From NCBI GenBank assembly GCA_039621445.1, contig CP154954.1:35201703-35265702 (forward strand): a stretch of DNA of 64,000 nt, written 5' to 3'. This document shows positions 12,001-31,928 of this stretch, piece after piece. The notes under the pieces are model-generated. The model was not told the origin of the DNA. It was given only the letters and a program-made list of their open reading frames with translations, and did no database searches. The translations under genes and the position numbers were made by a program. The DNA is from Euglena gracilis (Eukaryota). Position 1 is the stretch's first letter; the number at the start of each line of letters is the position of its first letter.

Positions 12001-14313
12001 TAAGAAAAACATGCAGCCGGAAAGTTGGTTGCAAGAAATGAGCAGATTTAGATGGGTGCATTCGACCATTCCGGGGGACATTTACCAGGTCAGCCCAGGT
12101 TACCATATAAAAATGGACCAAATTGGGCCTTACTCCGAGTTACCGAATGGGTGTTCCAGGAGGCCTCCAAAGTCAGGGGACCCGTTGGTTTCATGATTGT
12201 CGTGGTTTAATGGTAAGAAAAACATGCAGCCGAAAGGTTGGTTGCAAGAAATGAGCAGATTTAGATAGGTGCATTCGACCATTCCGGGGGACATTTACCA
12301 GGTCAGCCCAGGTTACCATGTAAAAATGGACCAAATTGGGCCTTACTCCGAGTAACCGAATGGGTGTTCCAGGAGGCCTCCAAAGTCAGGGGACCCGTTG
12401 GTTTCATGATTGTCGTGGTTTAATGGTAAGAAAAACATGCAGCCGAAAGGTTGGTTGCAAGAAATGAGCAGATTTAGATGGGTGCATTCGACCATTCCGG
12501 GGGACATTTACCAGGTCAGCCCAGGTTACCATGTAAAAATGGACCAAATTGGGCCTTACTCCGAGTAACCGAATGGGTGTTCCAGGAGGCCTCCAAAGTC
12601 AGGGGACCCGTTGGTTTCATGATTGTCGTGGTTTAATGGTAAAAAAACATGCAGCCGAAAGGTTGGTTGCAAGAAATGAGCAGATTTAGATAGGTGCATT
12701 CGACCATTCCGGGGGACATTTACCAGGTCAGCCCAGGTTACCATGTAAAAATGGACCAAATTGGGCATTACTCCGAGTAACCGAATGGGTGTTCCAGGAG
12801 GCCTCCAAAGTCAGGGGACCCGTTGGTTTCATGATTGTCGTGGTTTAATGGTAGAAAAAACATGCAGCGGGAATGTTGGTTGCAAGAAATGAGCACATTT
12901 AGATGGGTGCATTCGACCATTCCGGGGGACATTTACCAGGTCAGCCCCGGTTCCCATGTAAAAATGGACCAAATTGGGCCTTACTCCGAGTAACCGAATG
13001 GGTGTTCCAGGAGGCCTCCAAAGTCAGGGGACCCGTTGGTTTCATGATTGTCGTGGTGTAATGGTAGAAACAACATGCAGCGGGAATGTTGGTTGCAAGA
13101 AATGAGCACATTTAGATGGGTGCATTCGACCATTCCGGGGGACATTTACCAGGTCAGCCCAGGTTACCATGTAAAAATGGACCAAATTGGGCCTTACTCC
13201 GAGTAACCGAATGGGTGTTCCAGGAGGCCTCCAAAGTCAGGGGACCCGTTGGTTTCATGATTGTCGTGGTTTAATGGTAAGAAAAACATGCAGCGGGAAT
13301 GTTGGTTGCAAGAAATGAGCACATTTAGATGGGTGCATTCGACCATTCCGGGGGACATTTACCAGGTCAGCCCAGGTTACCATGTAAAAATGGACCAAAT
13401 TGGGCCTTACTCCGAGTAACCGAATGGGTGTTCCAGGAGGCCTCCAAAGTCAGGGGACCCGTTGGTTTCATGATTGTCGTGGTTTAATGGTAAGAAAAAC
13501 ATGCAGCCGAAAGGTTGGTTGCAAGAAATGAGCAGATTTAGATAGGTGCATTCGACCATTCCGGGAGACATTTACCAGGTCAGCCCAGGTTCCCATGTAA
13601 AAATGGACCAAATTGGGCCTTACTCCGAGTAACCGAATGGGTGTTCCAGGAGGCCTCCAAAGTCAGGGGACCCGTTGGTTTCATGATTGTCGTGGTTTAA
13701 TGGTAAGAAAAATATGCAGCCGAAAGGTTGGTTGCAAGAAATGAGCAGATTTAGATAGGTGCATTCGACCATTCCGGGAGACATTTACCAGGTCAGCCCA
13801 GGTTACCATGTAAAAATGGACCAAATTGGGCCTTACTCCGAGTAACCGAATGGGTGTTCCAGGAGGCCTCCAAAGTCAGGGGACCCGTTGGTTTCATGAT
13901 TGTCGTGGTTTAATGGTAAGAAAAATATGCAGCCGAAAGGTTGGTTGCAAGAAATGAGCAGATTTAGATAGGTGCATTCGACCATTCCGGGAGACATTTA
14001 CCAGGTCAGCTCAGGTTACCATGTAAAAATAAACCACATTGGGCCGTACTCCGAGTAACCGAATGGGTGTTCCAGGAGGCCTCCAAAGTCAGGGGACACG
14101 TTGGTTTCATGATTGTCGTGGTTTAATGGTAGAAAAAACATGCAGCGGGAATGTTGGTTGGAAGAAATGAGCAGATTTAGATGGGTGCATTCGACCATTC
14201 CGGGGGACATTTACCAGGTCAGCCCAGATTACCACGTAAAAATGGACCAAATTGGGCCGTACTCCGAGTAACCGAATGGGTGTTCCAGGAGGCCTCCAAA
14301 GTCAGGGGACCCG
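1..14313 (+). repeat. 213-bp tandem satellite array, block A (~67 monomers)
   Basis: Unit AGTAACCGAATGGGTGTTCCAGGAGGCCTCC...GGGCCTTACTCCG recurs every ~213 bp with scattered SNPs and 1-2 bp indels; GGGGACATTT variant. Confidence 0.98.
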
Positions 14314-14746
14314 AGTGTACGTCCCACCCCGGCTTTTCTACTTACGCTTTCCTCCTGAAAAGCCCGCGGGGGGAGTAACAATAAAATTTGCTTCCCTTTT
14401 CCCCTTTTGAATGCAAAGCACACAAGCAGAAGAATTGGTGGGACCGCAGTCCCTTATATGATTGTGACTTTTGCTAATTCGAGCTTTGTAAAAGAAAGAA
14501 AGAAAACTTCTATTCAAATGGGACTTCGCCCTCAGAATTCTAAAACAGAATTGCAAAGCACCAAACCCTGTAACCTTGAATTAGGAACCAGTTACTTTCG
14601 CTAAGCTTTCGCTAGCTCTGAGATTCTCTCTTTGTCTTATGGTTTTAACCATGCCACTGTGTACGGCCCGGCCGTAGCCAGGTTGTAGGCCGTAGCCCCT
14701 TGTATCTGGTACACAGTGCCATGGCAGAATGGCTGCCTGGTACACA
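14314..14746 (-). repeat. 3' LTR (433 bp including terminal dinucleotides)
   Basis: Direct repeat of 26572-27004 with 8 substitutions by my count; minus strand reads TG-TGTAC...GTACA-CT. Confidence 0.96.
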
Positions 14747-14756
14747 TCCCCCTCCC
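14747..14756 (-). promoter_or_regulatory. Polypurine tract (plus-strand primer)
   Basis: Minus strand GGGAGGGGGA directly abuts the start of the 3' LTR. Confidence 0.85.
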
Positions 14757-15129
14757 AGGGCTCTGCCCGATTTCCCTTCTGGACCAGGCCAGTCGGGATG
14801 CCAGGCACAGTCCCAGGTTCAGGGAGACAGTACCAGGATACCATGGTCTGGTTCCCAATTACGGTTACCTTGTTTGGAGCACAAAGCGCAAAAGAATTCT
14901 GACGCGCATGCTGTGCTTTGTGCGTCTTCTTACTTGACACCGTAGTGTCCTTGTGGTCTTGAATCTTCGCGATCAACATGTTATCCACCGAACTTAAGGC
15001 GATTCCGCCATTGTGTCTTGGGACGGCGTTGAAGGCGATGATGAAATGCGTATACACGCTCGAGACTTCGCTCATTGTTTGGGACTACGCCCATTTCAGC
15101 CGAAGCTGATTGTACGAGACAGGAAACCC

Positions 15130-18100
15130 TCAACGTTTGTGGGTTTCCTTGAAGTACTCACCCATGTGTGGGTCTTGTACCAAGGTCATTTCGGTTGGAC
15201 GTAGGTCCAGGGTATCCTTGTCAGGATTATCCATGTCAATCCTGGGGATAACCCAACTTTTGACTTCTTGTATCTCCTTGGGAAGTTCTGTTCTGAGCGT
15301 TTCAGCTCGCTTGTGGAGGTAAATTTGCAAGTTTTCCCAGAAAACTCTCGGAAAAGTTGCAGGCCAAATGTAGTAGTTCCATCTTGGATGATTTGCTGGT
15401 ACCTGTGGTGGCATGCCAGGCATAGCGTTGAAATCAACGTTATGCACGCGGGATGCACAGGCACAACGGGTTATATGGGGTTTCAGAATGGAGCCAACCC
15501 ATTCTGAATAGTGTTCGTATCCATGTCGTTCTGGTGGGTACTCAGGGAGTAACCAACGTTGTGTGGTTTCAGAAACCGTTGAAGGCTTTGTAAACAGTGG
15601 GTAGATGACGCGTTTCCAGTCGTCATCATTGAACAGCAGGGGCAATCGCCCTTTTGTACATTCCACAGCCAGTCTGATTCCGCCGGAATCAGTTTGGAAG
15701 TCAAAGGCGATTCCGCCGCGCTCAAAAGCATCAGCTTTCTTGAAACTTTTGAATTGGTACATTTGTCGTTTCGATTTGTAGTAGTTCAGGAAATCTTCAA
15801 GAACTTCCTCGTTTCCGGGTACGATCTTGAGATTTCCGCCATCTGCGGGCAACCATATGTCTGCCCGTAGGCAGTTGACACAGAAAACTGGTACGTCACG
15901 GTCTCTGTCCTCTTCCGACCACCGGAAGTTGTTCAGTTTTCTCCAGGCAAGCATACAATCACCACAAATCAGGGCGGCTGTGTTTGGCACGAATTCATTG
16001 TGGTGAAAGTTCTTCCGTTTGTTGTCTGCATAACAGACATGCACAGCGGGCATGCTGTTACGGATGTTGTGACAGACTGTACAGAGCCAGGTTGTTTGGC
16101 CATTCGGCCGATTGTCAAACAGGAATGTCTCCCCAAGGTATTGGGCAAACACTCTTGGTGATCTGGCATTGTAGAATCGCCAAATATGTCGAACATAGTA
16201 ATTGTACCTCTCTTCGTTGAAGAAAAGCGGTTGAATCCACTTGTTCAACGGTTGTCCGCGTTCGCGGGCTAATTGTATGTTGACAATGCGTTCTCCGACG
16301 CTCGGCAGGTTGGAGATAATGTCTTCTTGCCAAAGTGTGGCATTATCATCAACCGGCATGTTGTCATCTTGTGAGGTCTCCGACGTTGTATCTTGTCGCG
16401 TTCTACCTCGAATGGTAGAAGTGACCCGGCTTTTCCCGGCCACTTCGGTATATGTCGGGGCTGGTGTGGTAGCGGCTGAGGTTTTCGCCTTCTTTCCTGA
16501 TTTGCTACCACTCCCAGGCGGTGGTGGTTTTGGCTCGTTGTGTCGCTCAGCCGGTTTGCATGGTTCTGCAAGCTGAGGTTTGGCTTTGGACTTACTGCCT
16601 TTCTCTTTCCGCTGCGGCGGAAGAGGGCGTTCTGCAGGCGATTTTGGAGCAGGTTTGGCTGTTGGTGTGGTAGTAGTAGTGGTATTAGATGGTACGTCAG
16701 CAGCCGTCGGTACCACCTGTTCAGGTGTGTGTACCACTACGGGTGTTGTGTCATGTGCTGGCGTTTGTTCGACCGTAGTCGATTCGGTTGTTGTCACCGC
16801 TTCGGGTGTTTGGACATCAACCGCGTCTGCGGCCAGTGTTGTTGTCGAAGCCGGAGCTTCTTGTGTGGTTGCTTCGCCAAGTCCCGTGTCGCGGGGACTT
16901 CGCGTCGAAGAAGAAGACCTCGATCGCACCATTGCAACCATCGAGGCTACGCCACTTCGGACGCTTCCGAGGACGCGTCCGGCGGCTCGTCCGACTTCGG
17001 GTGGTATAAGTATAAAGTCGTTCGGGTCTGTCCATCTTTGTGCCAGTTCTTCGTCAGTGATTTCTCTTACGACTGGCGCATTTGCCCAGACGGAAGGAAC
17101 CGTGTCTGACGAAGGTACAGGGGCTGTCGTGGTTTCGGAAGGCATTTCGGCCATTGTGGGAGTTGTAGGCCGTCCGGCCGTTGGAGGTTCCGTAGGTGTC
17201 TCCGGTTCTGTTTCTGGTAATGGTGTTTGTGGTCGTTGCTGAACAGGCGTTGTGGGTGGCACTTCGGCCCTTAGAGCCTGTTGTACGCTACCTTCTCCGC
17301 TTTCAGAATCCACAGATGCGGAGGAGACGGAGCGTGTACTGTGTTCATTGTCTGTCCCTTCTTCCATTTCCTCATCGCCGGATGATCCAGAAGAGGAAAC
17401 GGATGAAGAGTCCGAAGAGTGTACGGGTGTATGTTCCACCGGCATTGTAGGAGCAGGTGAAGGTGGAGGTAAACGTTCTTCGGAACGTTTAGTTGCAGGC
17501 TTCGCTGCTGTCTTCGTTGTTGTTGTTGTAGATGATGCAGCCATTATAGGTTGTTCAATTGCAGACTGCGCTGCTTCGGACTCCGCCGGCTGGGGTTCAG
17601 GTTCAGGTTCAGGAAGTCTTATACGTGGTCGCAGACGGAAGTTTTGCCATCCGACAAATCTGTTTCCTCCCAATCCGCGAGGAAGCCAGTCCAGTATCGG
17701 GATGGCCAACCCATCCTTATTTGTACGTTTGCCCTTGAAAAATGGGGCAAAGTCCTCTCTTCGGAGGGTTTCGCCAAACAGGCGTTTGATGTACTTCCGT
17801 TTTCCTTCTTCGTCCCATGCAGGTCGAAGAGGGAGGTATTCCTGTGGAAGTGGTTGTTTTGGGTTGAGTAGGTTGTCTGCGGCGTCTGCGCGCCTTGCGT
17901 ATTCGTCGGCTTCGCGACTTCCGTGAAACGTGGCATCACCCTCGTCAGGGTTACCAGGGTAATGCCAAGGTGCACGAGAGAGTAGGTCTGCGACTTTTTG
18001 AGTATGACCTGGTGTGTAAACTACCACCAGGTTGAACTGACTCAAAAATTCGTGCCAGCGGCATCTTCGGCCAACTGAGGACATGGCTTTGTTTAAGTCC

Positions 18101-19716
18101 TCGGTGTACCAGTGTTGGAGAGACTCGTGGTCTGTCAACACTAGTATTTGTACGAGTGAACTGGCGACCCAACTTCGGAATTTTTGTAGGATAAGGACAA
18201 TGGCATACGTCTCCTTTTCTCGTATGCTCCATTTGACTTGTCCTTTTCCGTCTTCACCTTGTAGCTTTCTGCTGAAGAATGCTACAGGGCGCAGTTCATT
18301 GGACGAATTATGTTGACTCAACACACCGCCGACAGCATAGTCGCTGCTGTCGACCTCCAGTACGTATGGTTTGTACGGGTCGGCAATGTCAAGCACAACA
18401 TTGTCCAACATCAGTTGTTTAATTGTCGTTAGCGATTCTCGCATTGTATCATCCCATTGTATCTTTGTATTGTCAGGAGCGCGATTTTTGAGTTGTCGCG
18501 TCAGTGGTACCGCGATTTTCGCGAAATCCTTCATGTAAATCGCGTAATACTGCGCTAAACCCAAAAATCCTTTTAAATGGGTGATTGTCTTGATGTTTTC
18601 AGGTGTCCACTTCTTTATAGCTTCGAGTTTGCTTGGAGATGCTCTCCTTTGTCCGTTATTAAGAATGTGTCCACAAAATTTTATCGTTTCGCGAAACAAA
18701 TGCATTTTCGCGCCTTTGACGAAAAGCAAGTGTTTTTGAAACGTTGTCAGTACGGATCGTATATCGCGGTAGTGAATATCAAGGATATCACTACCCGAAT
18801 TTGTAAGTGGAGGAGGTGTGCCTATCAGCACATCATCAATGTATACCATTGCGAATGGTAAATCTCGTAAAATCCATTGTATCATTCTTTGGAACATGGC
18901 TGGGCCATTCTTAACACCCATTGGTAACACCGTCCATTGGTAAACTCCATGGGAGGTTACAAATGCGGTGTATGGTTGTGAGTCAGGATGTAAGTGCATC
19001 TGGTGAAAACCATCCTCTAAGTCGAAAATGGACCAGAGGCGGTTTTCCGCTTGTTTTGTAATCAGGTCTTCAATAAGTGGTAACGGAAATGGATCGTCCT
19101 TTGTCTGTGAGTTTAAGTATCGGTAATCCAGTACAAGTCTCCACTTTTTCTGTCTAGAAGCATCGGGAGGCTTGGGTACAACAAAAGCTTGTGAGGTCCA
19201 CTCGCTTTTGGAGGGTATGATCCATTTTCGTTCAATCAGTTTTTCGATCATTGTATTGAGAGTTTCTTCTCTTTCGCCTGAACAGCGAAAGAATTTTCGG
19301 TGCATGGGCTGTGCACCTTCTTTGAGTTCGATTTTACAGACACCAAAAGGTCCGCGAATTGCAGGATCTATGTCATGGGCATAGATAGGATGTTCAAGAA
19401 CATCACTGAATTCGCGATTGATCTTTGTACACAGTTCCTGTGATTTGGGATGTTGACCACCGCTTTCTATCACTGCGGATAGTTGGTATGTTTGGTCTTT
19501 CTGACCTTTTTCCCGTAGGAATTTGTCATTGTGGTCAACGGTTCCGAATGCATCGAAGAAACAAACACGAAAAATGATTTCTTTCAATGGTGGTAACATG
19601 ACACCGCAAAAATCTTCAAACAATGGCGTGTCATTCGGTAAATCCCACCACTGAAAAGTGACATACGTCAATTGTTGGAACCATTCCGCTTCGGGATTTA
19701 TAGGAATGAGCAGCAC
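15130..19716 (-). CDS. pol: Pol polyprotein, main ORF: C-terminal half of adenine MTase, reverse transcriptase, RNase H, P/T/S/E-rich linker, RING-like Cys/His domain, unknown C-terminus
   Basis: RT motifs WRLVLDYRYLN, FDLEDGFHQ, LPMGVKNGP, VYIDDVLI; Ty3-type RNase H motifs EVDSSDYAVGGVL, EKETYA, TDHESL, ADLLSR. The frame is open upstream to ~19794 (LWLHPPLKLIP). Confidence 0.93.
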   Translation of the reverse strand: MLLIPINPEAEWFQQLTYVTFQWWDLPNDTPLFEDFCGVMLPPLKEIIFRVCFFDAFGTVDHNDKFLREKGQKDQTYQLSAVIESGGQHPKSQELCTKINREFSDVLEHPIYAHDIDPAIRGPFGVCKIELKEGAQPMHRKFFRCSGEREETLNTMIEKLIERKWIIPSKSEWTSQAFVVPKPPDASRQKKWRLVLDYRYLNSQTKDDPFPLPLIEDLITKQAENRLWSIFDLEDGFHQMHLHPDSQPYTAFVTSHGVYQWTVLPMGVKNGPAMFQRMIQWILRDLPFAMVYIDDVLIGTPPPLTNSGSDILDIHYRDIRSVLTTFQKHLLFVKGAKMHLFRETIKFCGHILNNGQRRASPSKLEAIKKWTPENIKTITHLKGFLGLAQYYAIYMKDFAKIAVPLTRQLKNRAPDNTKIQWDDTMRESLTTIKQLMLDNVVLDIADPYKPYVLEVDSSDYAVGGVLSQHNSSNELRPVAFFSRKLQGEDGKGQVKWSIREKETYAIVLILQKFRSWVASSLVQILVLTDHESLQHWYTEDLNKAMSSVGRRCRWHEFLSQFNLVVVYTPGHTQKVADLLSRAPWHYPGNPDEGDATFHGSREADEYARRADAADNLLNPKQPLPQEYLPLRPAWDEEGKRKYIKRLFGETLRREDFAPFFKGKRTNKDGLAIPILDWLPRGLGGNRFVGWQNFRLRPRIRLPEPEPEPQPAESEAAQSAIEQPIMAASSTTTTTKTAAKPATKRSEERLPPPSPAPTMPVEHTPVHSSDSSSVSSSGSSGDEEMEEGTDNEHSTRSVSSASVDSESGEGSVQQALRAEVPPTTPVQQRPQTPLPETEPETPTEPPTAGRPTTPTMAEMPSETTTAPVPSSDTVPSVWANAPVVREITDEELAQRWTDPNDFILIPPEVGRAAGRVLGSVRSGVASMVAMVRSRSSSSTRSPRDTGLGEATTQEAPASTTTLAADAVDVQTPEAVTTTESTTVEQTPAHDTTPVVVHTPEQVVPTAADVPSNTTTTTTPTAKPAPKSPAERPLPPQRKEKGSKSKAKPQLAEPCKPAERHNEPKPPPPGSGSKSGKKAKTSAATTPAPTYTEVAGKSRVTSTIRGRTRQDTTSETSQDDNMPVDDNATLWQEDIISNLPSVGERIVNIQLARERGQPLNKWIQPLFFNEERYNYYVRHIWRFYNARSPRVFAQYLGETFLFDNRPNGQTTWLCTVCHNIRNSMPAVHVCYADNKRKNFHHNEFVPNTAALICGDCMLAWRKLNNFRWSEEDRDRDVPVFCVNCLRADIWLPADGGNLKIVPGNEEVLEDFLNYYKSKRQMYQFKSFKKADAFERGGIAFDFQTDSGGIRLAVECTKGRLPLLFNDDDWKRVIYPLFTKPSTVSETTQRWLLPEYPPERHGYEHYSEWVGSILKPHITRCACASRVHNVDFNAMPGMPPQVPANHPRWNYYIWPATFPRVFWENLQIYLHKRAETLRTELPKEIQEVKSWVIPRIDMDNPDKDTLDLRPTEMTLVQDPHMGEYFKETHKR

Positions 19717-19955
19717 ACCGCGTGCTTGATCCCGAAGGATCTTGTCAACAACAAGAGGGATAAGTTTCAGAGGTGGATGTAGCCACAGACCACATCACCC
19801 CAAAACTTATCAAACGCATTTGTATGGCTTGACCAGTAATTGGGTAATCGAGAATGTGCCTTGGACGAAAATGCATCAATCTCCAATTGTAGGTCCATCG
19901 ACTTCGCGATTCGCGCGATTTTGGAAAACCAAATTTCCAAAATGCGGTATTGTCC
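19545..19955 (-). other. DIRS/Dam-like DNA N6-adenine methyltransferase domain, split by a -1 frameshift near 19790
   Basis: Joined translation: YRILEIWF..IDAFSSKAHSRLPNYWS..NAFDKFWGD(V/G)LWLHPPLKLIPLVVDKILRDQARGVLLIPINPEAEWFQQL..WWDLP. This follows the DIRS MT pattern IDLFAS..DAF..W..xxPP..LI..VLxK..LIxPxW..WF. Confidence 0.8.
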
Positions 19956-21482
19956 AAAATTGAACGCATTCCAAATGCGGTTCGCGAAAACTGTCGCGGT
20001 TTCAGTCCTGTGGAGGGCTGAAACGCAGTTTACCGAGCCACATCGGTAATGCGGTGTGTCCGAAGACACTTCACCAGGCATTGTACCAAGTGTATCACAC
20101 GCATCAGGTGTATTGTCGAAAGTGTGATTGTTATTGGCATTCTGCCACTTGTATGCAGGCGTATTGGAGGGATTGGCATTCTGCCATTCGGGGTCATAGA
20201 GATTGGCTTTCTGCCCTTGTAAGTCCTCCAGCGCGGTTCTCGCGATTCCAAACAGGGACGCGATTCCGCGTTTGTCCAATTGTCGATGTACTTCAACACA
20301 CAACGGGTAACAACCCGGTGTGTTGTGTTCTCGTTCAGCGTTCCGGGTAAACTCAGTACCGATTTCGGTACCAAGTGTACTCTGGTTGTTGAGTAAGGCG
20401 ATTAGTTTGGAAGGTTCAACAATACATCCACAGTCAAAATCAGGTTGTGTGGAAATTCTCCGGCATTGTGCGCATTGGAAGGAAGTGTCGGTCTGGTAGT
20501 GCATGTCGGTCATGTGTGGTGTGTGCTTGGGGGTGTTGGAAGTTGTAGCTGCTGGGGGGTGTACAGGGGTGTCCGAAATCGACACACCTGGTGGAAAACG
20601 TAAAAGTTGTGCAGCTGGGCGGCTACTCGACACCGAAATTTCTTCAGGCCTTTGGGCTTTCGCCTTGGAACCCAGTGAAACGTGGGGGGTTAAGCTACTC
20701 GCTTTCCCTACCGCATGGGAAACGTGCGGTAAAAGTGTAGTGGGTAGGGGGGCAGCTTTCTCTTTACCCCTAGGGTAGGAAACGGTGTTTTCGGTTGTAG
20801 AAAACGTTGTGGCAAGGCGGGGGGACATCTGGGTAGATGTCTTGGGGGAGAAATTCGGTGGTGTGGGTTGTGTGCGTGAAGTAGTGCGCAAACCGAGGGA
20901 GGGGCAATCCACAACAAGGCGGTTCTGACGCAAGAACGGAAAACCCAAAATTACGTCAGAGCCGCGAATACCCGATTCGTAACTCCAGGTACCCAGAAAA
21001 TTTTGTATATGGGGGGGTTGTGAGTGGTGCTTGGGGATGATGGGGAGGAGTATGTCCAAAAAGCATCCCAAGTCACCACCGCACATGGGGCTGTTGTCAG
21101 CAGTCATAATTTTGATGGGGTACTTGGCTTTCACCAAGAGGGAGTTGGGAATTAATCCCGTTCGGAAGAGAAGGGGAATTCGACACCCTGTGTCGACCAA
21201 AATTTTGCATTTGGTGGAAAAATTTTGTGTTCGGATTTCCGCTTGGACCAAAAGTTCCATGGGGGGTACGCAAAGTGCAGGATCCGGTGTAAAATTGTTG
21301 TCTCTCCAACTGTTCCAGGATCCCGTTCCTACTTTGCTCAGCATTCCAGGCAGAAATTTGGAGTGGGGGGTGGGGGACCCGAAAATTTTCCGGGTACCGA
21401 CCAAAAAGGCAGATGGGCAGGGAAAGTAAGGTTGATCAAGTCCTACTTCCGGCTGTTCATCAGCCCAGAGGTCCGTGCCCAC
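19767..21482 (-). CDS. pol: Pol N-terminal part: retropepsin-like aspartic protease, linker, N-terminal half of MTase
   Basis: ILVDTGC catalytic motif (~21186-21194) and downstream DVILGFPFL. The frame is open from 21497, directly after the gag UAG. Confidence 0.88.
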   Translation of the reverse strand: MGTDLWADEQPEVGLDQPYFPCPSAFLVGTRKIFGSPTPHSKFLPGMLSKVGTGSWNSWRDNNFTPDPALCVPPMELLVQAEIRTQNFSTKCKILVDTGCRIPLLFRTGLIPNSLLVKAKYPIKIMTADNSPMCGGDLGCFLDILLPIIPKHHSQPPHIQNFLGTWSYESGIRGSDVILGFPFLRQNRLVVDCPSLGLRTTSRTQPTPPNFSPKTSTQMSPRLATTFSTTENTVSYPRGKEKAAPLPTTLLPHVSHAVGKASSLTPHVSLGSKAKAQRPEEISVSSSRPAAQLLRFPPGVSISDTPVHPPAATTSNTPKHTPHMTDMHYQTDTSFQCAQCRRISTQPDFDCGCIVEPSKLIALLNNQSTLGTEIGTEFTRNAEREHNTPGCYPLCVEVHRQLDKRGIASLFGIARTALEDLQGQKANLYDPEWQNANPSNTPAYKWQNANNNHTFDNTPDACDTLGTMPGEVSSDTPHYRCGSVNCVSALHRTETATVFANRIWNAFNFGQYRILEIWFSKIARIAKSMDLQLEIDAFSSKAHSRLPNYWSSHTNAFDKFWGDVVCGYIHL

Positions 21483-21500
21483 AGACCTCGGGCTCCCCTA
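21462..21500 (-). promoter_or_regulatory. Putative gag-pol stop-codon readthrough signal (UAG plus stem-loop)
   Basis: TAG (21500-21498) is in frame with pol, followed by GGG then AGCCC-GAGGTC-TGT-GGGC-ACG-GACCTC-T-GGGCT (about 14-bp stem). Confidence 0.7.
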
Positions 21501-21529
21501 CTCCAGGTCCGATTCAGCACTTCGGCTGT

Positions 21530-22327
21530 TTATCGTTTTCTTGTGTGAGTAGATAGCGCGCAATGCGCGGACCGCATTGCGGTCATCCTCCAACGAGGAT
21601 TCAGAGTTCTCATCCCCCTCCCTGCCCGAAGCCGGGGTTCCCTCCTCCAAAGAGGAGATTTTGAACCCGACCTTGTGTTTGTTGTTGTGTTTTGTATCAT
21701 TGTAGTGACGTTGGTTCGGGCGGGAGAGCGAGAACGGTAACATTTGGACGAATGGTGGTTATGTGATCCACAAAGGGAACACTTTTGTCGGTTTTGTGAT
21801 TTTTGTCGGTTTTGTGATGGGCTTTCACCCCTTGGAGGTCTTGGTGAACGGAATCCCGTTCGACCACGGTTCTTGTTGTAATCCGGTTTCCCGGATGACG
21901 ATCGCGAAGAAGATGATCCACTTCGCGAACGTGATCGCGATGAGTCGCGATTTGTATCACGTTTGTAAGGGGGTCGGGGTGATCGACCACGAGGTGCGAT
22001 TGCGTCCGCGGCCGCGGAAAGGAGGACGGGCCTGTTGTCGATAACCCGAGGATTGTGATGGTCCAGATTTGTGTGAAAACCCAGAGGAGCGGAGCTCCGC
22101 GAGGATTGTGAACCCCTTGGGCTCTGATTCCGCTTTCGCGTATCAGGATGGGGGCAGTCTCGGGACATATGCCCCGATTTGTTGCACAAAAAGCAAGTTT
22201 TGTCCGAAGATTGGTCAGATGAGCGCGGATAGCGCGTTTTTGTATCACCCTTTGGAGAGGTTGTGTGTTTTCCATATCCCCGTGGGGATTTTGGAGAAGA
22301 ATCTTTTGTAGGGCACTTACCGTACCG
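21530..22327 (-). CDS. gag: Gag nucleocapsid segment: two CCHC zinc knuckles flanking an RS-rich region
   Basis: CFLCNKSGHMSRDC and CSLCGSHNHHSSKC both fit CX2CX4HX4C; SRSRSRS tract between them. Confidence 0.85.
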   Translation of the reverse strand, partial: RYGKCPTKDSSPKSPRGYGKHTTSPKGDTKTRYPRSSDQSSDKTCFLCNKSGHMSRDCPHPDTRKRNQSPRGSQSSRSSAPLGFHTNLDHHNPRVIDNRPVLLSAAADAIAPRGRSPRPPYKRDTNRDSSRSRSRSGSSSSRSSSGKPDYNKNRGRTGFRSPRPPRGESPSQNRQKSQNRQKCSLCGSHNHHSSKCYRSRSPARTNVTTMIQNTTTNTRSGSKSPLWRREPRLRAGRGMRTLNPRWRMTAMRSAHCALSTHTRKR

Positions 22328-23244
22328 CTAGGGAGACCAGCGGTAGGGTGGTGGGTATAAGCCGATTGTATCTGTCCCAAAAGTTGTGAGAGTTTCATTT
22401 GTTTGGAAACATAGTTCCACCGTTGTTCAAGTGTGAGTTTGTTGTCCGCGAGTTCCTCGCGGTGAATGTCTTTGATAATTGTAGGAATGAAATGGACGAG
22501 AACCGCATCGAATTGTTCTTTCATTTGGTTCTCTCCCAGTTCATCAACCTCAGAAGCCAATCCCAACCATTTGGAATACCAAAGGTCGATTGACTTCCAT
22601 TTTCTGTCACTGGGCGCGAATTGCCGCCATTTTTTCTCAAGCGTAATTCGCGAAATTAGGCTTGAACAAGTTGACGCATATTGGTCAACCAGTTCATCAA
22701 AAGTTATCCGATTCCGGATCACAAGTTGTCGGGCGCGTTCTTTTTCTTCCTTGGGGAGGCAATCAATGAATTCCATCTTGATTACCTCAGGGTTCCCGTC
22801 TTGGGTTGGACCCTTCAAGTCCCAGTAGTATGTCCAATCGCGCCAAAATTGTTTCCAGGTTGTGGGATCTCCGTCCCATTGTGGCTTTACCTTGTTGGCA
22901 ATTGTAATTGTACCTTTGAAATCGCGTTGTGGACCACGATTTCCATCGTAATTGTTGGAGTAAGGTTGTTGTGGTGGCATGCGCGAATGCGCATCCAGGA
23001 TGGTACTCATGGTACCATAGGTACCATGGGGGTTAGGTACATCGCGGTTCCGCGAATTGTATGGATGTGTGTCGCGATTCCGCGATTCGGATTGTAGGGG
23101 GTCGCGATTCCGCGATTCGGGGTGTGGTAACATACCAGGGGGGTAGGAATCCCGTTGTTCACCCGGGAATCGGGGAACCGCGGTAAATTCCGTGTTTCGC
23201 ATTCGCGATTCATGGCCAATACCCGGGGTAGGGGTATGGCTCAT
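21697..23244 (-). CDS. gag: Gag capsid-like segment (true frame probably ends near 22305)
   Basis: PQWDGDPTTWKQFWRDW...FIDCLP...ITFDELVDQY resembles retrotransposon Gag capsid (PxFxG..W..F); located just upstream of the knuckles. Confidence 0.7.
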   Translation of the reverse strand: MSHTPTPGIGHESRMRNTEFTAVPRFPGEQRDSYPPGMLPHPESRNRDPLQSESRNRDTHPYNSRNRDVPNPHGTYGTMSTILDAHSRMPPQQPYSNNYDGNRGPQRDFKGTITIANKVKPQWDGDPTTWKQFWRDWTYYWDLKGPTQDGNPEVIKMEFIDCLPKEEKERARQLVIRNRITFDELVDQYASTCSSLISRITLEKKWRQFAPSDRKWKSIDLWYSKWLGLASEVDELGENQMKEQFDAVLVHFIPTIIKDIHREELADNKLTLEQRWNYVSKQMKLSQLLGQIQSAYTHHPTAGLPSGTVSALQKILLQNPHGDMENTQPLQRVIQKRAIRAHLTNLRTKLAFCATNRGICPETAPILIRESGIRAQGVHNPRGAPLLWVFTQIWTITILGLSTTGPSSFPRPRTQSHLVVDHPDPLTNVIQIATHRDHVREVDHLLRDRHPGNRITTRTVVERDSVHQDLQGVKAHHKTDKNHKTDKSVPFVDHITTIRPNVTVLALPPEPTSLQ

Positions 23245-23252
23245 ACCGCGAA

Positions 23253-24650
23253 TCAGTCCCGATTCGCGAATTTTTCTTGTTGTAAAACAAGAGGATTGGC
23301 GGTTTTTGCGGGGAAAACCGGTTCCTCATCCGAAGATTCACCCTTGTGCGGGGGAATCTTGATTTGTGGTATAAACGGGCGATTGTAATCGTGATTGTAG
23401 GCATGTGCATGATCATGTGCATCCGTGGATGCTTGTAGGGCATGCGCATCCGAAGATGCTTGTATGGGTGCGCATACTGCGCTTTTGGAAGTATTGGCAT
23501 CCAACACATCGCGAATTTGATGCACAAAGTCGCGAGTTGGATGTCGGGCATCCGAAGATGCTTCGGTTGGTGCGCGAAAAGCGCGTTGTGAGCTGGAAGT
23601 TGCAATTTGACCACCGAAAACGGTGTTTTCATGGCCAAAGTGCGGGGGGTTGCGGGATTTTGCATGAATCTCATCCAAACTCAATGCAAAATCTTGTATG
23701 CTTTGTTCCAATGAACCAACCACTTGGAAAAGGTCCGAAATTCGTTCAACATCACCCTGCAAACGCTTAATACGTTTGCGGTATGAGGGTAGTTCATCCA
23801 AAAGTGGTAATTTGTCAGCAATGGATTCAAAATTCGCGGAAAGTTTTGGAAAAGTGGTGTCCAAAAATTGGACCCGCTTAACCAAAGTTTCCATTGCGGT
23901 TGTAAGTGCGTTTAACCGATTCTCGGTTTGTGGGGTTTGTGGGGTTGTGGTACCCAACGTGGGTTGGGGTACCCTTACCGCATTTTCAGCGGTTTTATCA
24001 ACCATCATTGTAGAAAGTCGGTTCTCCAACACCGAAACTTGTTGTTTTAGTGTGAGAACTTGTTGAGTGACCGAATTTTCGGTCCTCATCAAGGTTTCAC
24101 AAAATTCTTGTACACTATCTTGATTTTTCGCAAGCATTTGGTCATAAAATGTGCGAAAATCAAGGGGTAGTTCGACTTCGCGAACCGTTTGTCCATCCGA
24201 GGATGGTTGGAGTCCGGAGACCCTTGTAGAAAGTGTTTGTACGCGTTTTTGTAAATGGGAAGTGGTGGATTGTAAGGTTTTGTGTTGGGTATTCAAATCC
24301 GCAAGCGCGGTTTCGATGCCGGTGATATCCGGAATTGATGTTTGAATACCGTTGCACCGTTTGTGCAAATCCGCAAATGCAGATTCGATTTTGTTCACAT
24401 CAGATTGTAATTGATTGTGCAAATCGGTGATAGTGGTTCGTAGTGCTCCCATACTGGGATTTTTTGTGGAAGTTTCCGCAAAGCGGCGTTGTAAGTCCCC
24501 AATTGCAGTTTGTAGTCCCGAAACATCCGCAAAAGCGGTTTTCAGGTCTGCAAACGCAATTTGGAGGTCCGCATTCGCGGTTTGGATGGTAGTTATGACC
24601 GTTTCTCGGTCTTGGAGTTCCGCATTCGCGGTTTGTAAGCTAAGAATCAC
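23253..24650 (-). CDS. Long coiled-coil segment of ORF1/Gag
   Basis: 465-aa ORF with heptad-like repeats (LQTANAELQ, IQTANADLQ, FADLKTAFAD); frame stays open upstream to ~24790. Confidence 0.7.
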   Translation of the reverse strand: MILSLQTANAELQDRETVITTIQTANADLQIAFADLKTAFADVSGLQTAIGDLQRRFAETSTKNPSMGALRTTITDLHNQLQSDVNKIESAFADLHKRCNGIQTSIPDITGIETALADLNTQHKTLQSTTSHLQKRVQTLSTRVSGLQPSSDGQTVREVELPLDFRTFYDQMLAKNQDSVQEFCETLMRTENSVTQQVLTLKQQVSVLENRLSTMMVDKTAENAVRVPQPTLGTTTPQTPQTENRLNALTTAMETLVKRVQFLDTTFPKLSANFESIADKLPLLDELPSYRKRIKRLQGDVERISDLFQVVGSLEQSIQDFALSLDEIHAKSRNPPHFGHENTVFGGQIATSSSQRAFRAPTEASSDARHPTRDFVHQIRDVLDANTSKSAVCAPIQASSDAHALQASTDAHDHAHAYNHDYNRPFIPQIKIPPHKGESSDEEPVFPAKTANPLVLQQEKFANRD

Positions 24651-25131
24651 CGCATCGCGGGATTGGAGTTCCGCCGTAGCGGTTTGTAGCGCATTGGACG
24701 CAGTTTCAAATTTTTGTATGTCGTTTTGCCACTTTTCATGGAGGAAATCTTGCCGATGCGCGATTTCCTGCCACTTGAGTGTGCAATGTGGTCAAATTGT
24801 GGGAAACTTCACCGCATTTGCAGGAAGTTTGTTCCAAACGAGCAATCCGCTCTTCCAGTTGTTGAGCAAAAGCTCTTTGTACATAGTTTTCGCGTATTTG
24901 TGTAAAATTTTGATGAAAACTTGCGTTTTCATCACCCAAACGCAAAATGCGTTCCTGGGATTGTTGTACAACATTGGATAGGGTTGAGAAGTGCTCATAT
25001 GAGACATATGAGCCAAGTTCCGCACCCGTAGGCGCTTTATCCCGTTGTTGTAGGCGGGACTGCATTTCTTGCATTGTATAAGAGAATTTTTTGAGCTGAG
25101 TGGACAATTGTTGTAAACTTTGTTGTAAATG

Positions 25132-26085
25132 TCACAATTTTGCGCTATTTCTCGATTCCGCGGTTTGGAGGGTCTCTTGTACCTGTTGGAAGTTTTGTAC
25201 CAAGGTGTTGCGCAAAAATGCGTCAAAACCTTGGTGGAGGTTCTGAAGGTCCATTGTAGTGGAGTTAAAATTCTTTTGGCAAAATTGTCCAAATTCTTGG
25301 ATATATTGCCAAAGGAAGTCCAGCTTGCCGAAAACGGCCTTGTGACTGTCTTCATCAAATTGTAGGACTTGGTTCAGTGTTTTAGCGCAATTTTGGACAC
25401 ATGCTTCGATGTGTCGAAATTGCTGTTGTAGTGGGTGGTTCTCCGGTAAATTTGCGACTACGCGCTCAACGGTATTACTGGAGAACGAATCCCGGTCTTC
25501 CTCGGGGTCATTGTCCATGGGAACAATGACACCGGCAGTGTCCGGGACCACCAACCGCATTTCAGCGGACCAAGGTAGTTCTGGGATTTCTCCCAATTGT
25601 GGAGGGGGGGGCAAGTCCCTAATGGGGCTTACCGGTGGTAGGGCAGGGGGGGGGTTGGAAAAAACAAGGTGTTTCCAACCCGTCCTCGTAAGAGGGGGCT
25701 CTGTTGGCAATTGGGTGCCAAAAGGCACTAATTGCCAACCCCGTTCGGGCATACTGCCCTCTTGTGAGTCATACTCCGCAGAAGCGGAGGGGGTCCGTAG
25801 ACCCATTGTAGGATGGTGTTTTACCGCAAATGCGGTTGTTGTAAAGTTTGGTCCGCAAATGCGGGTTGGGTCCGTAGACCCTTGGAGGGGGGGGGTACCG
25901 CCGTAGCGGCTTGGGTCCGTAGGCCCTTGGAGGGGGGGGGGTACCGCCGTAGCGGCTTGGGTCCGTAGACCCTTGGAGGGGGGGGGGACCGCCGTAGCGG
26001 CTTGGGGCCGTAGACCCTTGGAGGGAGGGATACCGCCGTAGCGGCTTGTAGGGGGGGCACCGCCAACGCGGTCCGGGTTCGACAA
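25132..26085 (-). CDS. Pro-rich and helical N-terminal segment of ORF1
   Basis: 317-aa ORF; continues in frame past its TGA into ORF 24736-25107 (AKL*HLQQSLQQLSTQ). Confidence 0.55.
   Translation of the reverse strand: MSNPDRVGGAPPTSRYGGIPPSKGLRPQAATAVPPPSKGLRTQAATAVPPPLQGPTDPSRYGGTPPLQGSTDPTRICGPNFTTTAFAVKHHPTMGLRTPSASAEYDSQEGSMPERGWQLVPFGTQLPTEPPLTRTGWKHLVFSNPPPALPPVSPIRDLPPPPQLGEIPELPWSAEMRLVVPDTAGVIVPMDNDPEEDRDSFSSNTVERVVANLPENHPLQQQFRHIEACVQNCAKTLNQVLQFDEDSHKAVFGKLDFLWQYIQEFGQFCQKNFNSTTMDLQNLHQGFDAFLRNTLVQNFQQVQETLQTAESRNSAKL
25868..26048. repeat. ~45-bp minisatellite (4 copies) inside ORF1 with variable G-runs
   Basis: GGGTCCGTAGACCCTTGGAG(n)TACCGCCGTAGCGGCTT repeated; encodes QAATAVPPPSKGLRT on the minus strand. 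Confidence 0.9.
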
Positions 26086-26107
26086 CCCTGTTGGTGGGGG
26101 GGTGCCA

Positions 26108-26255
26108 CCGAAGCGGCTTGGGCATCCGCCCCTTGTATAGAAAAATTTTCCACCGCAGAAGCGGCGTGGGCATTCGCCCCTTGTGAAGGAAAATTTTCTG
26201 CCGCAAAAGCGGTTTGGGCCTCCGCCCCTTGTGAAGAAAAATTTTCTGTCGCCGT
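26108..26255. repeat. ~48-bp imperfect tandem repeat (3 copies) inside ORF1
   Basis: CGCCCCTTGT..AAAATTTTC..CCG recurs; encodes ENFxxQGAxAxxAxAx three times. Confidence 0.85.
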
Positions 26256-26561
26256 AGCGACTTCGTCTGCATTCTGCAGTCCACGAAGAGAACCTATTAA
26301 CAAAGCATAGTTAATAGGTGCGTTTCCAGTGTGTGCATGTGCACTTTGCATTTCTGATGAAAAATTGGGAAAATTTTTGTGAAAATAGTAAAAATTGTAA
26401 AATTTGTAAAAATTTGTGTGAAAAGACCCAAAAATATAAGCAAAGGTGGGGGCTCAGAGGCTTTGTGATGCAGCCGTAGCCACTTGTGCCCCTGAGACAC
26501 CTCGCCCGTGCTTAGGCGCCTTTTCTGAGTTTTTGTGTGGTCGTACGACCGTTAAACCTAA

Positions 26562-26571
26562 TCTGCTACCA
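26562..26571 (-). promoter_or_regulatory. Primer-binding site, tRNA-iMet type
   Basis: Minus strand TGGTAGCAGA immediately after the 5' LTR; complementary to the ..UCUGCUACCA 3' end of many eukaryotic initiator tRNAs. Confidence 0.85.
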
Positions 26572-27004
26572 AGTGTACGTCCCACCCCGGCTTTTCTACT
26601 TAAGGTTTTCCCCTGAAAAGCCCGTGGGGGGAGTAACAATAAAATTTGCTTCCCTTTTCCCCTTTTGAATGCAAAGCACACAAGCAGAAGAATTGGTGGG
26701 ACCGCAGTCCCTTATATGATTGTGACTTTTGCTCTTTCGAGCTTTGTAAAAGAAAGAAAGAAAACTTCTATTCAAATGGGACTTCGCCCTCAGAATTCTA
26801 AAATAGAATTGCAAAGCACCAAACCCTGTAACCTTGAATTAGGAACCAGTTACTTTCGCTAAGCTTTCGCTAGCTCTGAGATTCTCTCTTTGTCTTATGG
26901 TTTTAACCATGCCACTGTGTACGGCCCGGCCGTAGCCAGGTTGTAGGCCGTAGCCCCTTGTATCTGGTACACAGTGCCATGGCAGAATGGCTGCCTGGTA
27001 CACA
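26572..27004 (-). repeat. 5' LTR (433 bp including terminal dinucleotides)
   Basis: Direct repeat of 14314-14746, followed on the minus strand by the PBS. Confidence 0.96.
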
Positions 27005-30000
27005 CTTACTCCGAGTAACTGAACGGGTGTTCCAGGAGGCCTCCAAATTCACGGGACCCGTTGGTTTTATGACTGTCGTGGTTTAATGGTAAGAGCAACA
27101 TGCAGCGGGCATGTTGGTTGCAAGAAATGAGCACATTTAGATGTGTGCATTCGACCATTCCGGGGAACGATTACCAGGTCAGCCCAGGTTACCATGTAAA
27201 AATGGACCAAATTGGGCCTTACTCCGAGTAACCGAATGGGTGTTCCAGGAGGCCACCAAAGTCAGGGGACCCGTTGGTTTCATGATTGTCGTGGTTTAAT
27301 GGTAAGAAAAACGTGCAGCGGGAATGTTGGTTGCAAGAAATGAGCACATTTAGATGGGTGCATTCGACCATTCCAGGGGACGTTTACCAGGTCAGCCCAG
27401 TTTACCGTGTAAAAATGGACCAAATTGGGCCTTACTCCGAGTAACTGAAGGGTGTTCCAGGAGGCCTCCAAAGTCAGGGGACCCGTTGGTTTCATGATTG
27501 TCGTGGTTTAATGGTAAGGAAAACGTGCAGCGGGAATGTTGGTTGCAAGAAATGAGCACATTTAGATGGGTGCCTTCGACCATTCCGGGGGACGTTTACC
27601 AGGTCAGCCCAGGTTACCGTGTAAAAATGGACCAAATTGGGCCTTACTCCGAGTAACTGAATGGGTGTTCCAGGAGGCCTCCAAAGCCGGGGGCCCGTTG
27701 GTTTCGTGATTGTCGTGGTTTAATGGTAAGAAAAACATGCAGCGGGAATGTTGGTTGCAAGAAATGAGCACACTTAGATGGGTGCATTCGACCATTGCGG
27801 GGGACGTTTACCAGGTCAGCCCAGGATACCGTGTAAAAATGGACCAAATTGGGCCTTACTCCGAGTAACCGAATGTGTTCCAGGAGGCCTCCAAAGTCAG
27901 GGGACCCTTTGGTTTCATGATTGTCGTGGTTTAATGGTAAGAAAAACATGCAGCGGGAATGTTGGTTGCAAGAAATGAGCACATTCAGATGGGTGCATTC
28001 GACCATTCCCGGGGACGTTTACCAGGTCAGCCCAGGTTACCGTGTAAAAATGGACCAAATTGGGACTTACTCCGAGTAACTGAATGAGGCCTCCAAAGTC
28101 AGGGGACCCGTTGGTTTCATGATTGTCGTGGTTTAATGGTAAGAAAACATGCAGCGGGAATGTTGGTTGCAAGAAATGAGCACATTTAGATGGGTGCATT
28201 CGACCATTCCGGGGGACGTTTACCAGGTCAGCCCAGGTTACCCTGTAAAATGGTCCAAATTGGGCCTTACTCCGAGTAACCGAATGGGTGTTCCAGGAGG
28301 CCTCCAAAGTCAGGGGACCCGTTGGTTTCACGATTGTCGTGGTTTAATGGTAAGAAAAACGTGCAGCGGGAATGTTGGTTGCAAGATATAAGCACATTTA
28401 GACGGGTGCATTCGACCATTTCGGGGGACGTTTACCAGGTCAGCCCAGGTTACCGTGTAAAAATGGACCAAATTGGGCCTTACTCCGAGTAACGGAATGG
28501 GTGTTCCAGGAGGCCTCCAAAGTCAGGGGACCCTTTGGTTCCATGATTGTCGTGGTTTAATGGTAGGGAAAACATTCAGCGGGAATGTTGGTTGCAAGAA
28601 ATGAGCACATTTAGATGGGTGCATTCGACCATTCCGGGGGACGTTTACCAGGTCAGCCCAGGTTACCGTGTAAAAATGGACCAAATTGGGACTTACTTCG
28701 AGTAACCGAATGGGTGTTCCAGGAGGCCTCCAAAGTCAGGGGGCCCGTTGGTTTCGTGATTGTCGTGGTTCAATGGTAAGAAAAGCATGCAGCGGGAATG
28801 TTGGTTGCAAGAAATGAGCACACTTAGATGGGTGCATTCGACCATTCCAGGAGACGTTTACCAGGTCAGCCCAGGTTACCGTATAAAAAGGGACCAAATT
28901 GGGCCTTACTCCGAGTAACCGAATGGGTGTTCCAGGAGGCCTCCAAAGTCAGGGGACCCTTTGGTTTCATGATTGTCGTGGTTTAATGGTAAGAAAAACA
29001 TGCAGCGGGAATGTTGGTTGCAAGAAATGAGCACATTTAGATGGGTGCATTCGACCATTCCGGGGGACGTTTACCAGGTCAGCCCAGGTTACCGTGTAAA
29101 AATGGACCAAATTGGGACTTACTCCGAGTAACTGAATGAGGCCTCCAAAGTCAGGGGACCCGTTGGTTTCATGATTGTCGTGGTTTAATGGTAAGAAAAA
29201 CATGCAGCGGGAATGTTGGTTGCAAGAAATGAGCACATTTAGATGGGTGCATTCGACCATTCCGGGGGACGTTTACCAGGTCAGCCCAGGTTACCCTGTA
29301 AAAATGGACCAAATTGGGGCTTACTCCGAGTAACCGAATGGGTGTTCCAGGAGGCCTCCAAAGTCAGGGGACCCGTTGGTTTCATGATTGTCGTGGTAGA
29401 ATGGTAAGAAAAACATGCAGCGGGAATGTTGGTTGCAAGAAATGAGCACATTTAGATGGGTGCCTTCGACCATTCCGGGGGACGTTTACCAGGTCAGCCC
29501 AGGTTACCATGTAAAAATGGACCAAATTGGGCCTTACTCCGAGTAACCGAATGGGTGTTCCAGGAGGCCTCCAAAGTCAGGGGGCCCGTTGGTTTCGTGA
29601 TTGTCGTGGTTCAATGGTAAGAAAAACATGCAGCGGGAATGTTGGTTGCAAGAAATGAGCACATTTAGATGGGTGCATTCGACCATTCCGGGGGACGTTT
29701 ACCAGGTCAGCCCAGGTTACCGTGTAAAAATGGACCAAATTGGGCCTTACTCCGAGTAACCGAACGGGTGTTCCAGGAGGCCTCCAAAGTCAGGGGACCC
29801 TTTGGTTTCATGATTGTCGTGGTTTAATGGTAAGAAAAACATGCAGCGGGAATGTTGGTTGCAAGAAATGAGCACATTTAGATGGGTGCATTCGACCATT
29901 CCGGGGGACGTTTACCAGGTCAGCCCAGGTTACCATGTAAAAATGGACCAAATTGGGACTTACTCCGAGTAACTGAATGAGGCCTCCAAAGTCAGGGGAC

Positions 30001-31924
30001 CCGTTGGTTTCATGATTGTCGTGGTTTAATGGTAAGAAAAACATGCAGCGGGAATGTTGGTTGCAAGAAATGAGCACATTTAGATGGGTGCATTCGACCA
30101 TTCCGGGGGACGTTTACCAGGTCAGCCCAGGTTACCCTGTAAAAATGGACCAAATTGGGCCTTACTCCGAGTAACCGAATGGGTGTTCCAGGAGGCCTCC
30201 AAAGTCAGGGGACCCGTTGGTTTCATGATTGTCGTGGTTTAATGGTAAGAAAAACATGCTGCGGGAATGTTGGTTGCAAGAAATGAGCACATTTAGATGG
30301 GTGCATTCGCCCATTCCGGGGGACGTTTACCAGGTCAGCCCAGGATACCCTGTAAAAATGGACCAAATTAGGCCTTACTCCGAGTAACGGAACGGGTGTT
30401 CCAGGAGGCCTCCAAAGTCAGGGTACCCTTTGGTTTCATGATTGTCGTGGTTTAATTGTAAGAAAAACATGCAGCGGGAATGTTGGTTGCAAGAAATGAG
30501 CGCATTTAGATGGGTGCCTTCGACCATTCCGGGGGACGTTTACCAGGTCAGCCCAGGTTACCATGTAAAAATGGACCAAATTGGGCCTTACTCCGAGTAA
30601 CCGAATGGGTGTTCCAGGAGGCCTCCAAAGTCAGGGGACCCGTTGGTTTCATGATTGTCGTGGTTTAATGGTAAGAAAAACATGCAGCGGGAATGTTGGT
30701 TGCAAGAAATGAGCACATTTAGATGGGTGCATTCGACCATTTCGGGGGACGTTAACCAGGTCAGCCCAGGTTACCCTGTAAAAATGGACCAAATTGGGCC
30801 TTACTGCGAGTAACCGAATGGGTGTTCCAGGAGGCCTCCAAAGTCAGGGGACCCGTTGGTTTCATGATTGTCGTGGTAGAATGGTAAGAAAAACATGCTG
30901 CGGGAATGTTGGTTGCAAGAAATGAGCACATTTAGATGGGTGCATTCGCCCATTCCGGGGGACGTTTACCAGGTCAGCCCAGGATACCCTGTAAAAATGG
31001 ACCAAATTAGGCCTTACTCCGAGTAACCGAATGGGTGTTCCAGGAGGCCTCCAAAGTCAGGGGACCCGTTGGTTTCATGATTGTCGTGGTTTAATGGTAA
31101 GAAAAACATGCAGCGGGAATGTTGGTTGCAAGAAATGAGCGCATTTAGATGGGTGCCTTCGACCATTCCGGGGGACGTTTACCAGGTCAGCCCAGGTTAC
31201 CATGTAAAAATGGACCAAATTGGGACTTACTCCGAGTAACTGAATGAGGCCTCCAAAGTCAGGGGACCCGTTGGTTTCATGATTGTCGTGGTTTAATGGT
31301 AAGAAAAACATGCAGCGGGAATGTTGGTTGCAAGAAATGAGCACATTTAGATGGGTGCATTCGACCATTCCGGGGGACGTTTACCAGGTCAGCCCAGGTT
31401 ACCCTGTAAAAATGGACCAAACTGGGGCTTACTCCGAGTAACCGAATGGGTGTTCCAGGAGGCCTCCAAAGTCAGGGGACCCGTTGGTTTCACAATTGTC
31501 GTGGTTTAATGGTAAGAAAAACATGCAGCGGGAATGTTGGTTGCAAGAAATGAGCACATTTAGATGGGTGCATTCGACCATTTCGGGGGACGTTTACCAG
31601 GTCAGCCCAGGTTACCCTGTAAAAATGGACCAAATTGGGCCTTACTGCGAGTAACCGAATGGGTGTTCCATGAGGCCTCCAAAGTCAGGGGACCCTTTGG
31701 TTTCATGATTGTCGTGGTTTAATTGTAAGAAAAACATGCAGCGGGAATGTTGGTTGCAAGAAATGAGCGCATTTAGATGGGTGCCTTCGACCATTCCGGG
31801 GGACGTTTACCAGGTCAGCCCAGGTTACCATGTAAAAATGGACCAAATTGGGCCTTACTCCGAGTAACCGAATGGGTGTTCCAGGAGGCCTCCAAAGTCA
31901 GGGGACCCGTTGGTTTCACAATTG
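27005..31924 (+). repeat. 213-bp satellite, block B (~23 monomers, GGGGACGTTT subfamily)
   Basis: Same monomer with diagnostic GACGTTT, frequent TACCGTG/TACCCTG variants and recurrent 11-bp-deleted units. Confidence 0.97.
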
Positions 31925-31928
31925 AAAT

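Follow-up and report, generated by a model that had tools for sequence, protein, structure and literature searches.

The element and its setting

The window of our study, meaning the whole stretch of DNA analysed, comprises 64,000 nucleotides of the Euglena gracilis genome (GenBank assembly GCA_039621445.1, contig CP154954.1, positions 35,201,703 to 35,265,702 of the forward strand), and all positions below are counted from its first letter. A 213-bp satellite makes up nearly all of this 64-kb window, and its sole notable interruption is a long terminal repeat (LTR) retroelement of 12,691 bp, which lies at 14314-27004 on the minus strand. This copy keeps two bases beyond an inverted repeat at both of its ends, is flanked by no target site duplication (TSD) and carries no integrase gene, a combination that may reflect the capture of an unprocessed complementary DNA (cDNA) by host repair. 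The features that bear on its ends are the two LTRs, the primer-binding site (PBS), the polypurine tract (PPT) and the satellite at either junction:

14258-14313, plus strand: 56-nt partial satellite monomer that closes the left array with GACCCG and matches a common variant (12 monomers) at every position
14314-14746, minus strand: 3' LTR, a 433-bp direct repeat, with the core TGTAC...GTACA at 14316-14744, the outer CT (AG on the plus strand) at 14314-14315 and the inner TG beside the PPT at 14745-14746
14747-14756, minus strand: PPT, GGGAGGGGGA, directly before the TG of the 3' LTR
26562-26571, minus strand: PBS, TGGTAGCAGA, directly after the CT of the 5' LTR with zero spacer
26572-27004, minus strand: 5' LTR, a 433-bp direct repeat, with the core at 26574-27002, the outer TG (CA on the plus strand) at 27003-27004 and the inner CT beside the PBS at 26572-26573
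27005-27217, plus strand: first satellite monomer on the right, starting with CTTACT

Termini and junctions

The LTRs are 433 nt each and are separated by 8 substitutions and 0 indels (98.2% identity). On the plus strand their ends read AG-TGTAC...GTACA-CA, and on the element (minus) strand TG-TGTAC...GTACA-CT, which places a 5-bp inverted repeat without mismatch, TGTAC/GTACA, bounded by the canonical TG...CA, two bases inside each LTR end. An earlier account of this DNA, made without database searches and referred to here as the sequence-only reading, had described exactly this perfect inverted repeat with two extra nucleotides per end, and the sequence agrees with it. The 433-bp repeat is the product expected of reverse transcription, with U3 running from the base after the PPT and U5 to the base before the PBS. 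The PBS, TGGTAGCAGA, is one that we take to match the 3' end of initiator tRNA-Met.

On the plus strand of the window, GGACCCG is followed by TT in 207 of its 212 occurrences and by AG only once, at the left junction, and CTTACTCCGAG is preceded by GC in 186 of the 198 occurrences listed and by CA only once, at the right junction. A satellite source of the outer dinucleotides is ruled out by these counts (1/212 for AG and 1/198 listed for CA), which indicate that the element contributes two further bases outside the TGTAC/GTACA inverted repeat at each end. The counts also bear out what had been claimed for both termini, namely that the CT before the PBS recurs at the outer end of the 3' LTR (14314-14315), where the satellite has TT, and that the TG after the PPT recurs at the outer end of the 5' LTR (27003-27004). 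The probability of two arbitrary outer dinucleotides equalling the internal ones is 1/256. Both dinucleotides are therefore kept past the inverted repeat, and their removal by the integrase of the family is what we would expect, judging from the single copy seen.

A TSD of 4-6 bp is absent both when the dinucleotides are assigned to the element and when they are assigned to the flanks, which upholds, in either register, the claim that the flanks ending in GACCCG and starting with CTTACT share no duplication. Both ends are joined bluntly to the satellite, with no microhomology at either junction, and by eye the flanks show no resemblance to the PBS or PPT beyond isolated bases. The satellite was also rightly described as resuming 56 bp out of phase, as the left flank stops, in satellite phase, 56 nt downstream of the point at which the right flank takes up. 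The resulting 56-nt overlaps (14258-14313 and 27005-27060) differ by 5 mismatches, whereas the 8/433 divergence of the LTRs would predict about 1; the left version is the common variant found in 12 monomers, and the right version is unique, with four private changes. This excess shows that the flanks are two different monomers, as a deletion or the joining of two ends would leave them, and not the halves of a diverged long duplication, and a 56-bp TSD was dropped as a candidate because the overlap is too diverged. The phase of the array relative to the insert cannot be altered by satellite exchange or conversion, so the offset dates either from the insertion or from recombination between two inserts.

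The monomer at 27005-27217 is the most diverged near the element, with 14 differences from the consensus and a best identity to any other monomer of 0.939. The further claim that the satellite resumes as a different subfamily stands only in a mild form: the median identity of right-hand to left-hand monomers is 91-96%, against 94-98% within the left array, and monomers of 200-202 bp occur on the right side only.

Coding content and the missing integrase

The open reading frames (ORFs) and domains of the element, including its reverse transcriptase (RT), are as follows:

25132-26310, minus strand: extra upstream ORF of 392 codons without a family match, with 45/48-bp tandem repeats at 25861-26252
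23253-24791, minus strand: extra upstream coiled-coil ORF of 512 codons
21530-23325, minus strand: region resembling gag, split between two frames (21697-23325 and 21530-22327) and containing a CCHC zinc knuckle
19767-21497, minus strand: protease (DTG motif), seen from the sequence motif, and the first half of a DAM-like domain
15130-19794, minus strand: pol ORF, 1554 codons open, with the DAM-like tail, RT at about 18661-19179 and RNase H at about 18034-18456
15133-16380, minus strand: Cys/His-rich C-terminal domain of the pol ORF, at the place of the integrase and chromodomain

A Pfam scan of all 35 stop-to-stop ORFs of at least 100 aa returned only RVT_1, RT_RNaseH, RT_RNaseH_2 and zf-CCHC above the cut-offs. 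The matches to RVT_1 (1.3e-26) and RT_RNaseH (2.4e-23) are of the Gypsy type, and the domain order is protease (PR)-RT-RNase H. No match to rve, Chromo or a tyrosine recombinase was found in any of these 35 ORFs, and the integrase parts of seven relatives gave no tblastn match in any frame of 14000-27300, so that the integrase is missing from the copy at 14314-27004, as the sequence-only reading had it. Homology to the integrase-bearing relatives stops at 17863 on the minus strand for six of the seven, and the seventh trails weakly to 17653. Elements of the DIRS/Ngaro type have inverted or split terminal repeats and no TSD by design; a tyrosine-recombinase element of this type was considered and rejected, on account of the plain direct LTRs and the lack of a recombinase in the ORFs.

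In place of integrase and chromodomain the element has 910 codons (17862 down to 15133, minus strand) that are unrelated to the integrase of its relatives and consist of a Ser/Thr/Pro-rich stretch and the Cys/His-rich domain. These residues of pol (645-1554) found no BLASTP match among 120 protein relatives, and the Cys/His-rich domain (15133-16380) has no match in Pfam. Its conserved motifs are common to only 9 short proteins among 1.84 billion representatives, and its best two matches are Euglena gracilis transcripts, at 43-47% identity. The Atlas returned scores of at most 0.81 for the replacement domain, with weak RING-like leads only, and the AlphaFold model, with a mean pLDDT (predicted local distance difference test) of 36.8, was unusable.

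The two ORFs upstream of gag are unusual baggage in a chromovirus-type element. Near 19788 a frameshift splits the PR/Dam-like/RT polyprotein, which is continuous in the relative P0007. The Dam-like domain is cut in two by this frameshift and has no Pfam match in the ORFs of the window, although its motif is present in the alignment with relatives. Judged from its sequence, the copy at 14314-27004 is now defective, its polyprotein being split.

Relatives of the element

P0007 is 98% identical over pol residues 3-644 (RT-RNase H) and continues into an Integrase_H2C2 zinc domain. A relative with a 91% identical RT has rve and a chromodomain, as do several relatives at about 70%, and pol identities span 98-64% overall. 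PF05869 (Dam) lies upstream of RT in many relatives, and the consensus of ten of them runs PR, Dam-like domain, RT, RNase H, integrase, chromodomain. The DAM-LTR retrotransposons, recently described, include a Euglena group (bioRxiv 10.64898/2026.05.21.726589), and the relatives of our pol resemble them in having PF05869 upstream of RT, an integrase and a chromodomain. The copy in the window is unlike them in that 910 aa occupy the place of integrase and chromodomain. On domain content, we class it as an integrase-less derivative of a chromovirus-like Ty3/gypsy DAM-LTR retrotransposon and not as an autonomous member. In the text of the preprint, the term 'target site' has 0 occurrences (bioRxiv 10.64898/2026.05.21.726589).

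Search for other copies

No other fragment, second copy or solo LTR of the element was found within the 64-kb window. An exact 22-mer of the LTR end occurred in neither metagenome nor viral contigs, and an exact 24-mer over the LTR/PPT boundary in neither genome nor viral contigs (0 matches in each). P0007 found no match in viral contigs, and the RT gave 5 pattern matches and 0 relatives in genome contigs. In the RT-alignment search of metagenome contigs, the best 80 of 269 relative-encoding loci had a top segment at most 38% identical, which made them useless for the family. Protein searches with two small ORFs that cross the ends of U5 and U3, aimed at the flanks of other copies, returned no candidates.

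Contigs were compared from four runs, with loose ends considered as the best 6 per run (789 further ones exist). No loose end at 14316 was among these best 6 per run, an absence that proves nothing. In run X1, the loose-end consensus of 17 contigs whose match starts at 14314 finishes in the ten letters of the PBS. The summed word depth of the LTR in three runs was 0.5-1.6 million and that of the satellite 5-14 million. Among the contigs matched to the window, the stretch of LTR start and PPT (14720-14780) had a summed depth about 15-20 times that of the LTR body in run X18 and about 2 times in X1-X3; this stretch may be common to other, more abundant element families.

Proposed capture of unprocessed cDNA by host repair

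Retroviral and Ty3 integrases clip two bases 3' of a conserved CA and create a duplication of 4-6 bp. The retention of both dinucleotides, the lack of a duplication and the two non-contiguous target points are together what is expected of an unprocessed linear cDNA ligated into a break. With moderate confidence, we propose that a blunt, complete, unprocessed linear cDNA was joined to the satellite by host double-strand-break repair, independently of integrase. The integrase of the family would normally clip the two bases; here, the complete blunt molecule would instead have been ligated into the satellite by end joining. Either 157 bp, together with an arbitrary number of complete monomers, would have disappeared at the break, or two non-adjacent array ends would have been joined. 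As neither junction shows microhomology, the joining would have been of the classical kind.

This signature is known from experiments. In HIV-1 DNA inserted at I-SceI breaks, neither LTR end had lost its terminal dinucleotide, whether the integrase was wild-type or catalytically dead (D64A) (Koyama et al. 2013, PMC3605128); this insertion at the break is independent of integrase catalysis. Our copy is similar in that both LTR ends keep the dinucleotides that integrase removes. Unlike that experiment, in which the break site was known, the window holds one fixed natural copy of the Ty3/gypsy type that has no integrase gene, at a break that we propose from its flanks. Integrase-defective Tf1 and HIV-1 also still insert without a TSD, some of the junctions having 1-4 bases of viral origin outside the LTR (Li et al. 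2022, PMC11042837). Tf1 is, moreover, of the chromovirus type, and likewise lacks a TSD and sometimes keeps element bases beyond the LTR in this pathway. Its integrase-independent events proceed, however, by Rad52 single-strand annealing with PBS/PPT homology in the flanks, and mostly give tandems in existing copies (PMC11042837), whereas the junctions in the window are blunt, without PBS/PPT homology and without a neighbouring copy. For such junctions, classical end joining fits better than the Rad52 route of Tf1.

Several observations weigh against capture. Non-autonomous LTR elements normally rely on a helper, and siblings with 91% (probably also those with 98%) identical RT have an integrase, so that an integrase-free route does not follow from the loss of the gene; a helper integrase can probably be drawn from the same genome or from a close one. 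This is a single copy, whose ends may or may not be those with which the family normally integrates. The flanks lack the PBS/PPT homology that is typical of integrase-independent Tf1 events (PMC11042837), and the element lies between two somewhat different types of array, as recombination between two copies would also give. Among the contigs listed from the four runs, in which the left junction was looked at, none bridges 14313 and 14314. A contig of 446 nt from run X18 spans 14314-14760 exactly and starts at AG, not at 14316. Host repeats seem to be at trace depth in this run, so that only family-wide sequence assembles, and a start at AG is expected if the contexts of many copies diverge upstream of it. 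This is a weak hint that AG is common in the LTR family; contig ends depend on the assembler, and the other LTR boundary is run through by the same contig. The sequence-only reading had inferred that a blunt full-length cDNA was captured at a break and that this fits the missing integrase. The first part stands as far as the signature matches HIV-1 capture, and is qualified by the siblings as possible helpers and by the existence of families with TG...CT ends; the second stands in that the gene is absent from the copy, and is weakened by the integrase of the siblings.

Alternative explanations

LTRs of the TG...CT type, in which inversion fails only at the outermost base, form a documented non-canonical class whose insertions have TSDs, with examples in lotus Copia and soybean Gypsy elements as cited in PMC9804982; TGCT is the commonest non-canonical class in lotus and is found in three soybean Gypsy families. 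The LTR in the window matches this class exactly, which also counts against capture, as it starts with TG and ends with CT and its 7-bp terminal inverted repeat is broken by the outermost base alone. If the family were of this class, its 433-bp ends would be ordinary, and only the missing TSD would need explaining, for example by recombination between two copies. A helper integrase would then have inserted two copies at different satellite positions, and unequal homologous exchange between them would have left a recombinant whose 5' and 3' flanks come from different copies, a history that we regard as possible but rather unlikely. It would accommodate the siblings at 91% (rve and chromodomain) and 98% (Integrase_H2C2), the highly repeated state of the LTR family in three runs, the start of the X18 contig exactly at AG, and the way in which the element parts two array variants next to an unusually diverged right edge monomer. 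It needs, however, two uncommon things, non-canonical ends in a Gypsy-type family and recombination between two copies, and the window offers no second copy or solo LTR. TGCT families are defined by many copies with TSDs (PMC9804982), unlike the one copy here, which has no TSD and has TGTAC/GTACA two bases inside.

The position of that repeat, exactly two bases inside both ends, is itself the layout of retroviruses and Ty3, in which the ends are clipped, and this speaks against the ends being ordinary. Recombinant LTR elements in plants have an intact LTR pair, no matching TSD and flanks from two places; our copy differs from them in its outer bases, since recombination alone adds no element bases beyond canonical ends. 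An artefact of assembly or polishing in a difficult satellite and LTR region, in which reads from the many LTR-PBS and PPT-LTR contexts of other copies shifted the outer bases towards the internal sequence, or in which a chimeric contig was formed at the LTRs, appears very improbable. LTR and satellite are both of very high copy number and the 14313/14314 junction is unbridged, as such an error would have it, but satellite bases restored at both places still leave no TSD and the same 56-bp offset. The LTRs also keep 8 private differences and have not been collapsed together, and 15 of the 24 listed runs contain half or more of the words sampled from 14000-15000. We give least credence, finally, to a staggered break whose 56-bp duplication later diverged, or to an integrase that joined one end before host repair closed the other. 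The right flank does repeat the last 56 nt of the left flank in phase; the 5/56 mismatches, four of them private to the right copy while the left is the common variant, are nevertheless too many for the former, and the extra bases are kept at both ends, not one, as opposed to the latter.

Significance

Insertion of LTR-element cDNA without integrase is well shown in the laboratory (Tf1, HIV-1). To our knowledge, its contribution to real genomes is hardly known, and fixed natural cases with both ends intact have rarely been recognised. The mechanism of capture is therefore already known from experiments, and what would be new is a fixed natural full-length example that lacks integrase. If capture is the correct explanation, the copy would be a clean natural case, full-length, unclipped at both ends and without TSD or integrase, in a satellite array. 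End type and TSD can be scored for each copy of a family, which makes the question countable. If the family merely has TG...CT ends, the finding is ordinary.

A broader possibility, which we consider improbable, is that a lineage of Euglena-type DAM-LTR elements traded integrase and chromodomain for the Cys/His-rich domain and spreads routinely as unprocessed cDNA into satellite breaks. All of its copies would then have 433-bp ends and no TSD, and the integrase-bearing siblings would have clipped ends and TSDs. Routine spread of the integrase-less form in this manner would represent a new way of life for LTR retrotransposons and would give rise to breaks and rearrangements within satellite arrays.

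Organization of the satellite

The satellite around the element is arranged in five arrays:

1-14313, plus strand: satellite array
27005-31918, plus strand: satellite array
31929-35759, minus strand: satellite array, inverted
35917-61168, plus strand: satellite array
61183-64000, minus strand: satellite array, inverted

The array at 27005-31918 is closest to the inverted array at 31929-35759. It contains shortened monomers of 200-202 bp every 4-6 units, and none are present in 1-14313; this recurrence looks like a local higher-order repeat. The satellite switches strand at 31918-31929 and at 61168-61183, with about 10-15 bases between the arms. Between the inverted and direct arrays, a GC-rich non-satellite spacer of 157 bp (35760-35916) separates satellite in mirror-image phase. 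Its length is, as it happens, 213 minus 56; no connection with the retroelement was found. The junction that it forms is fold-back-like.

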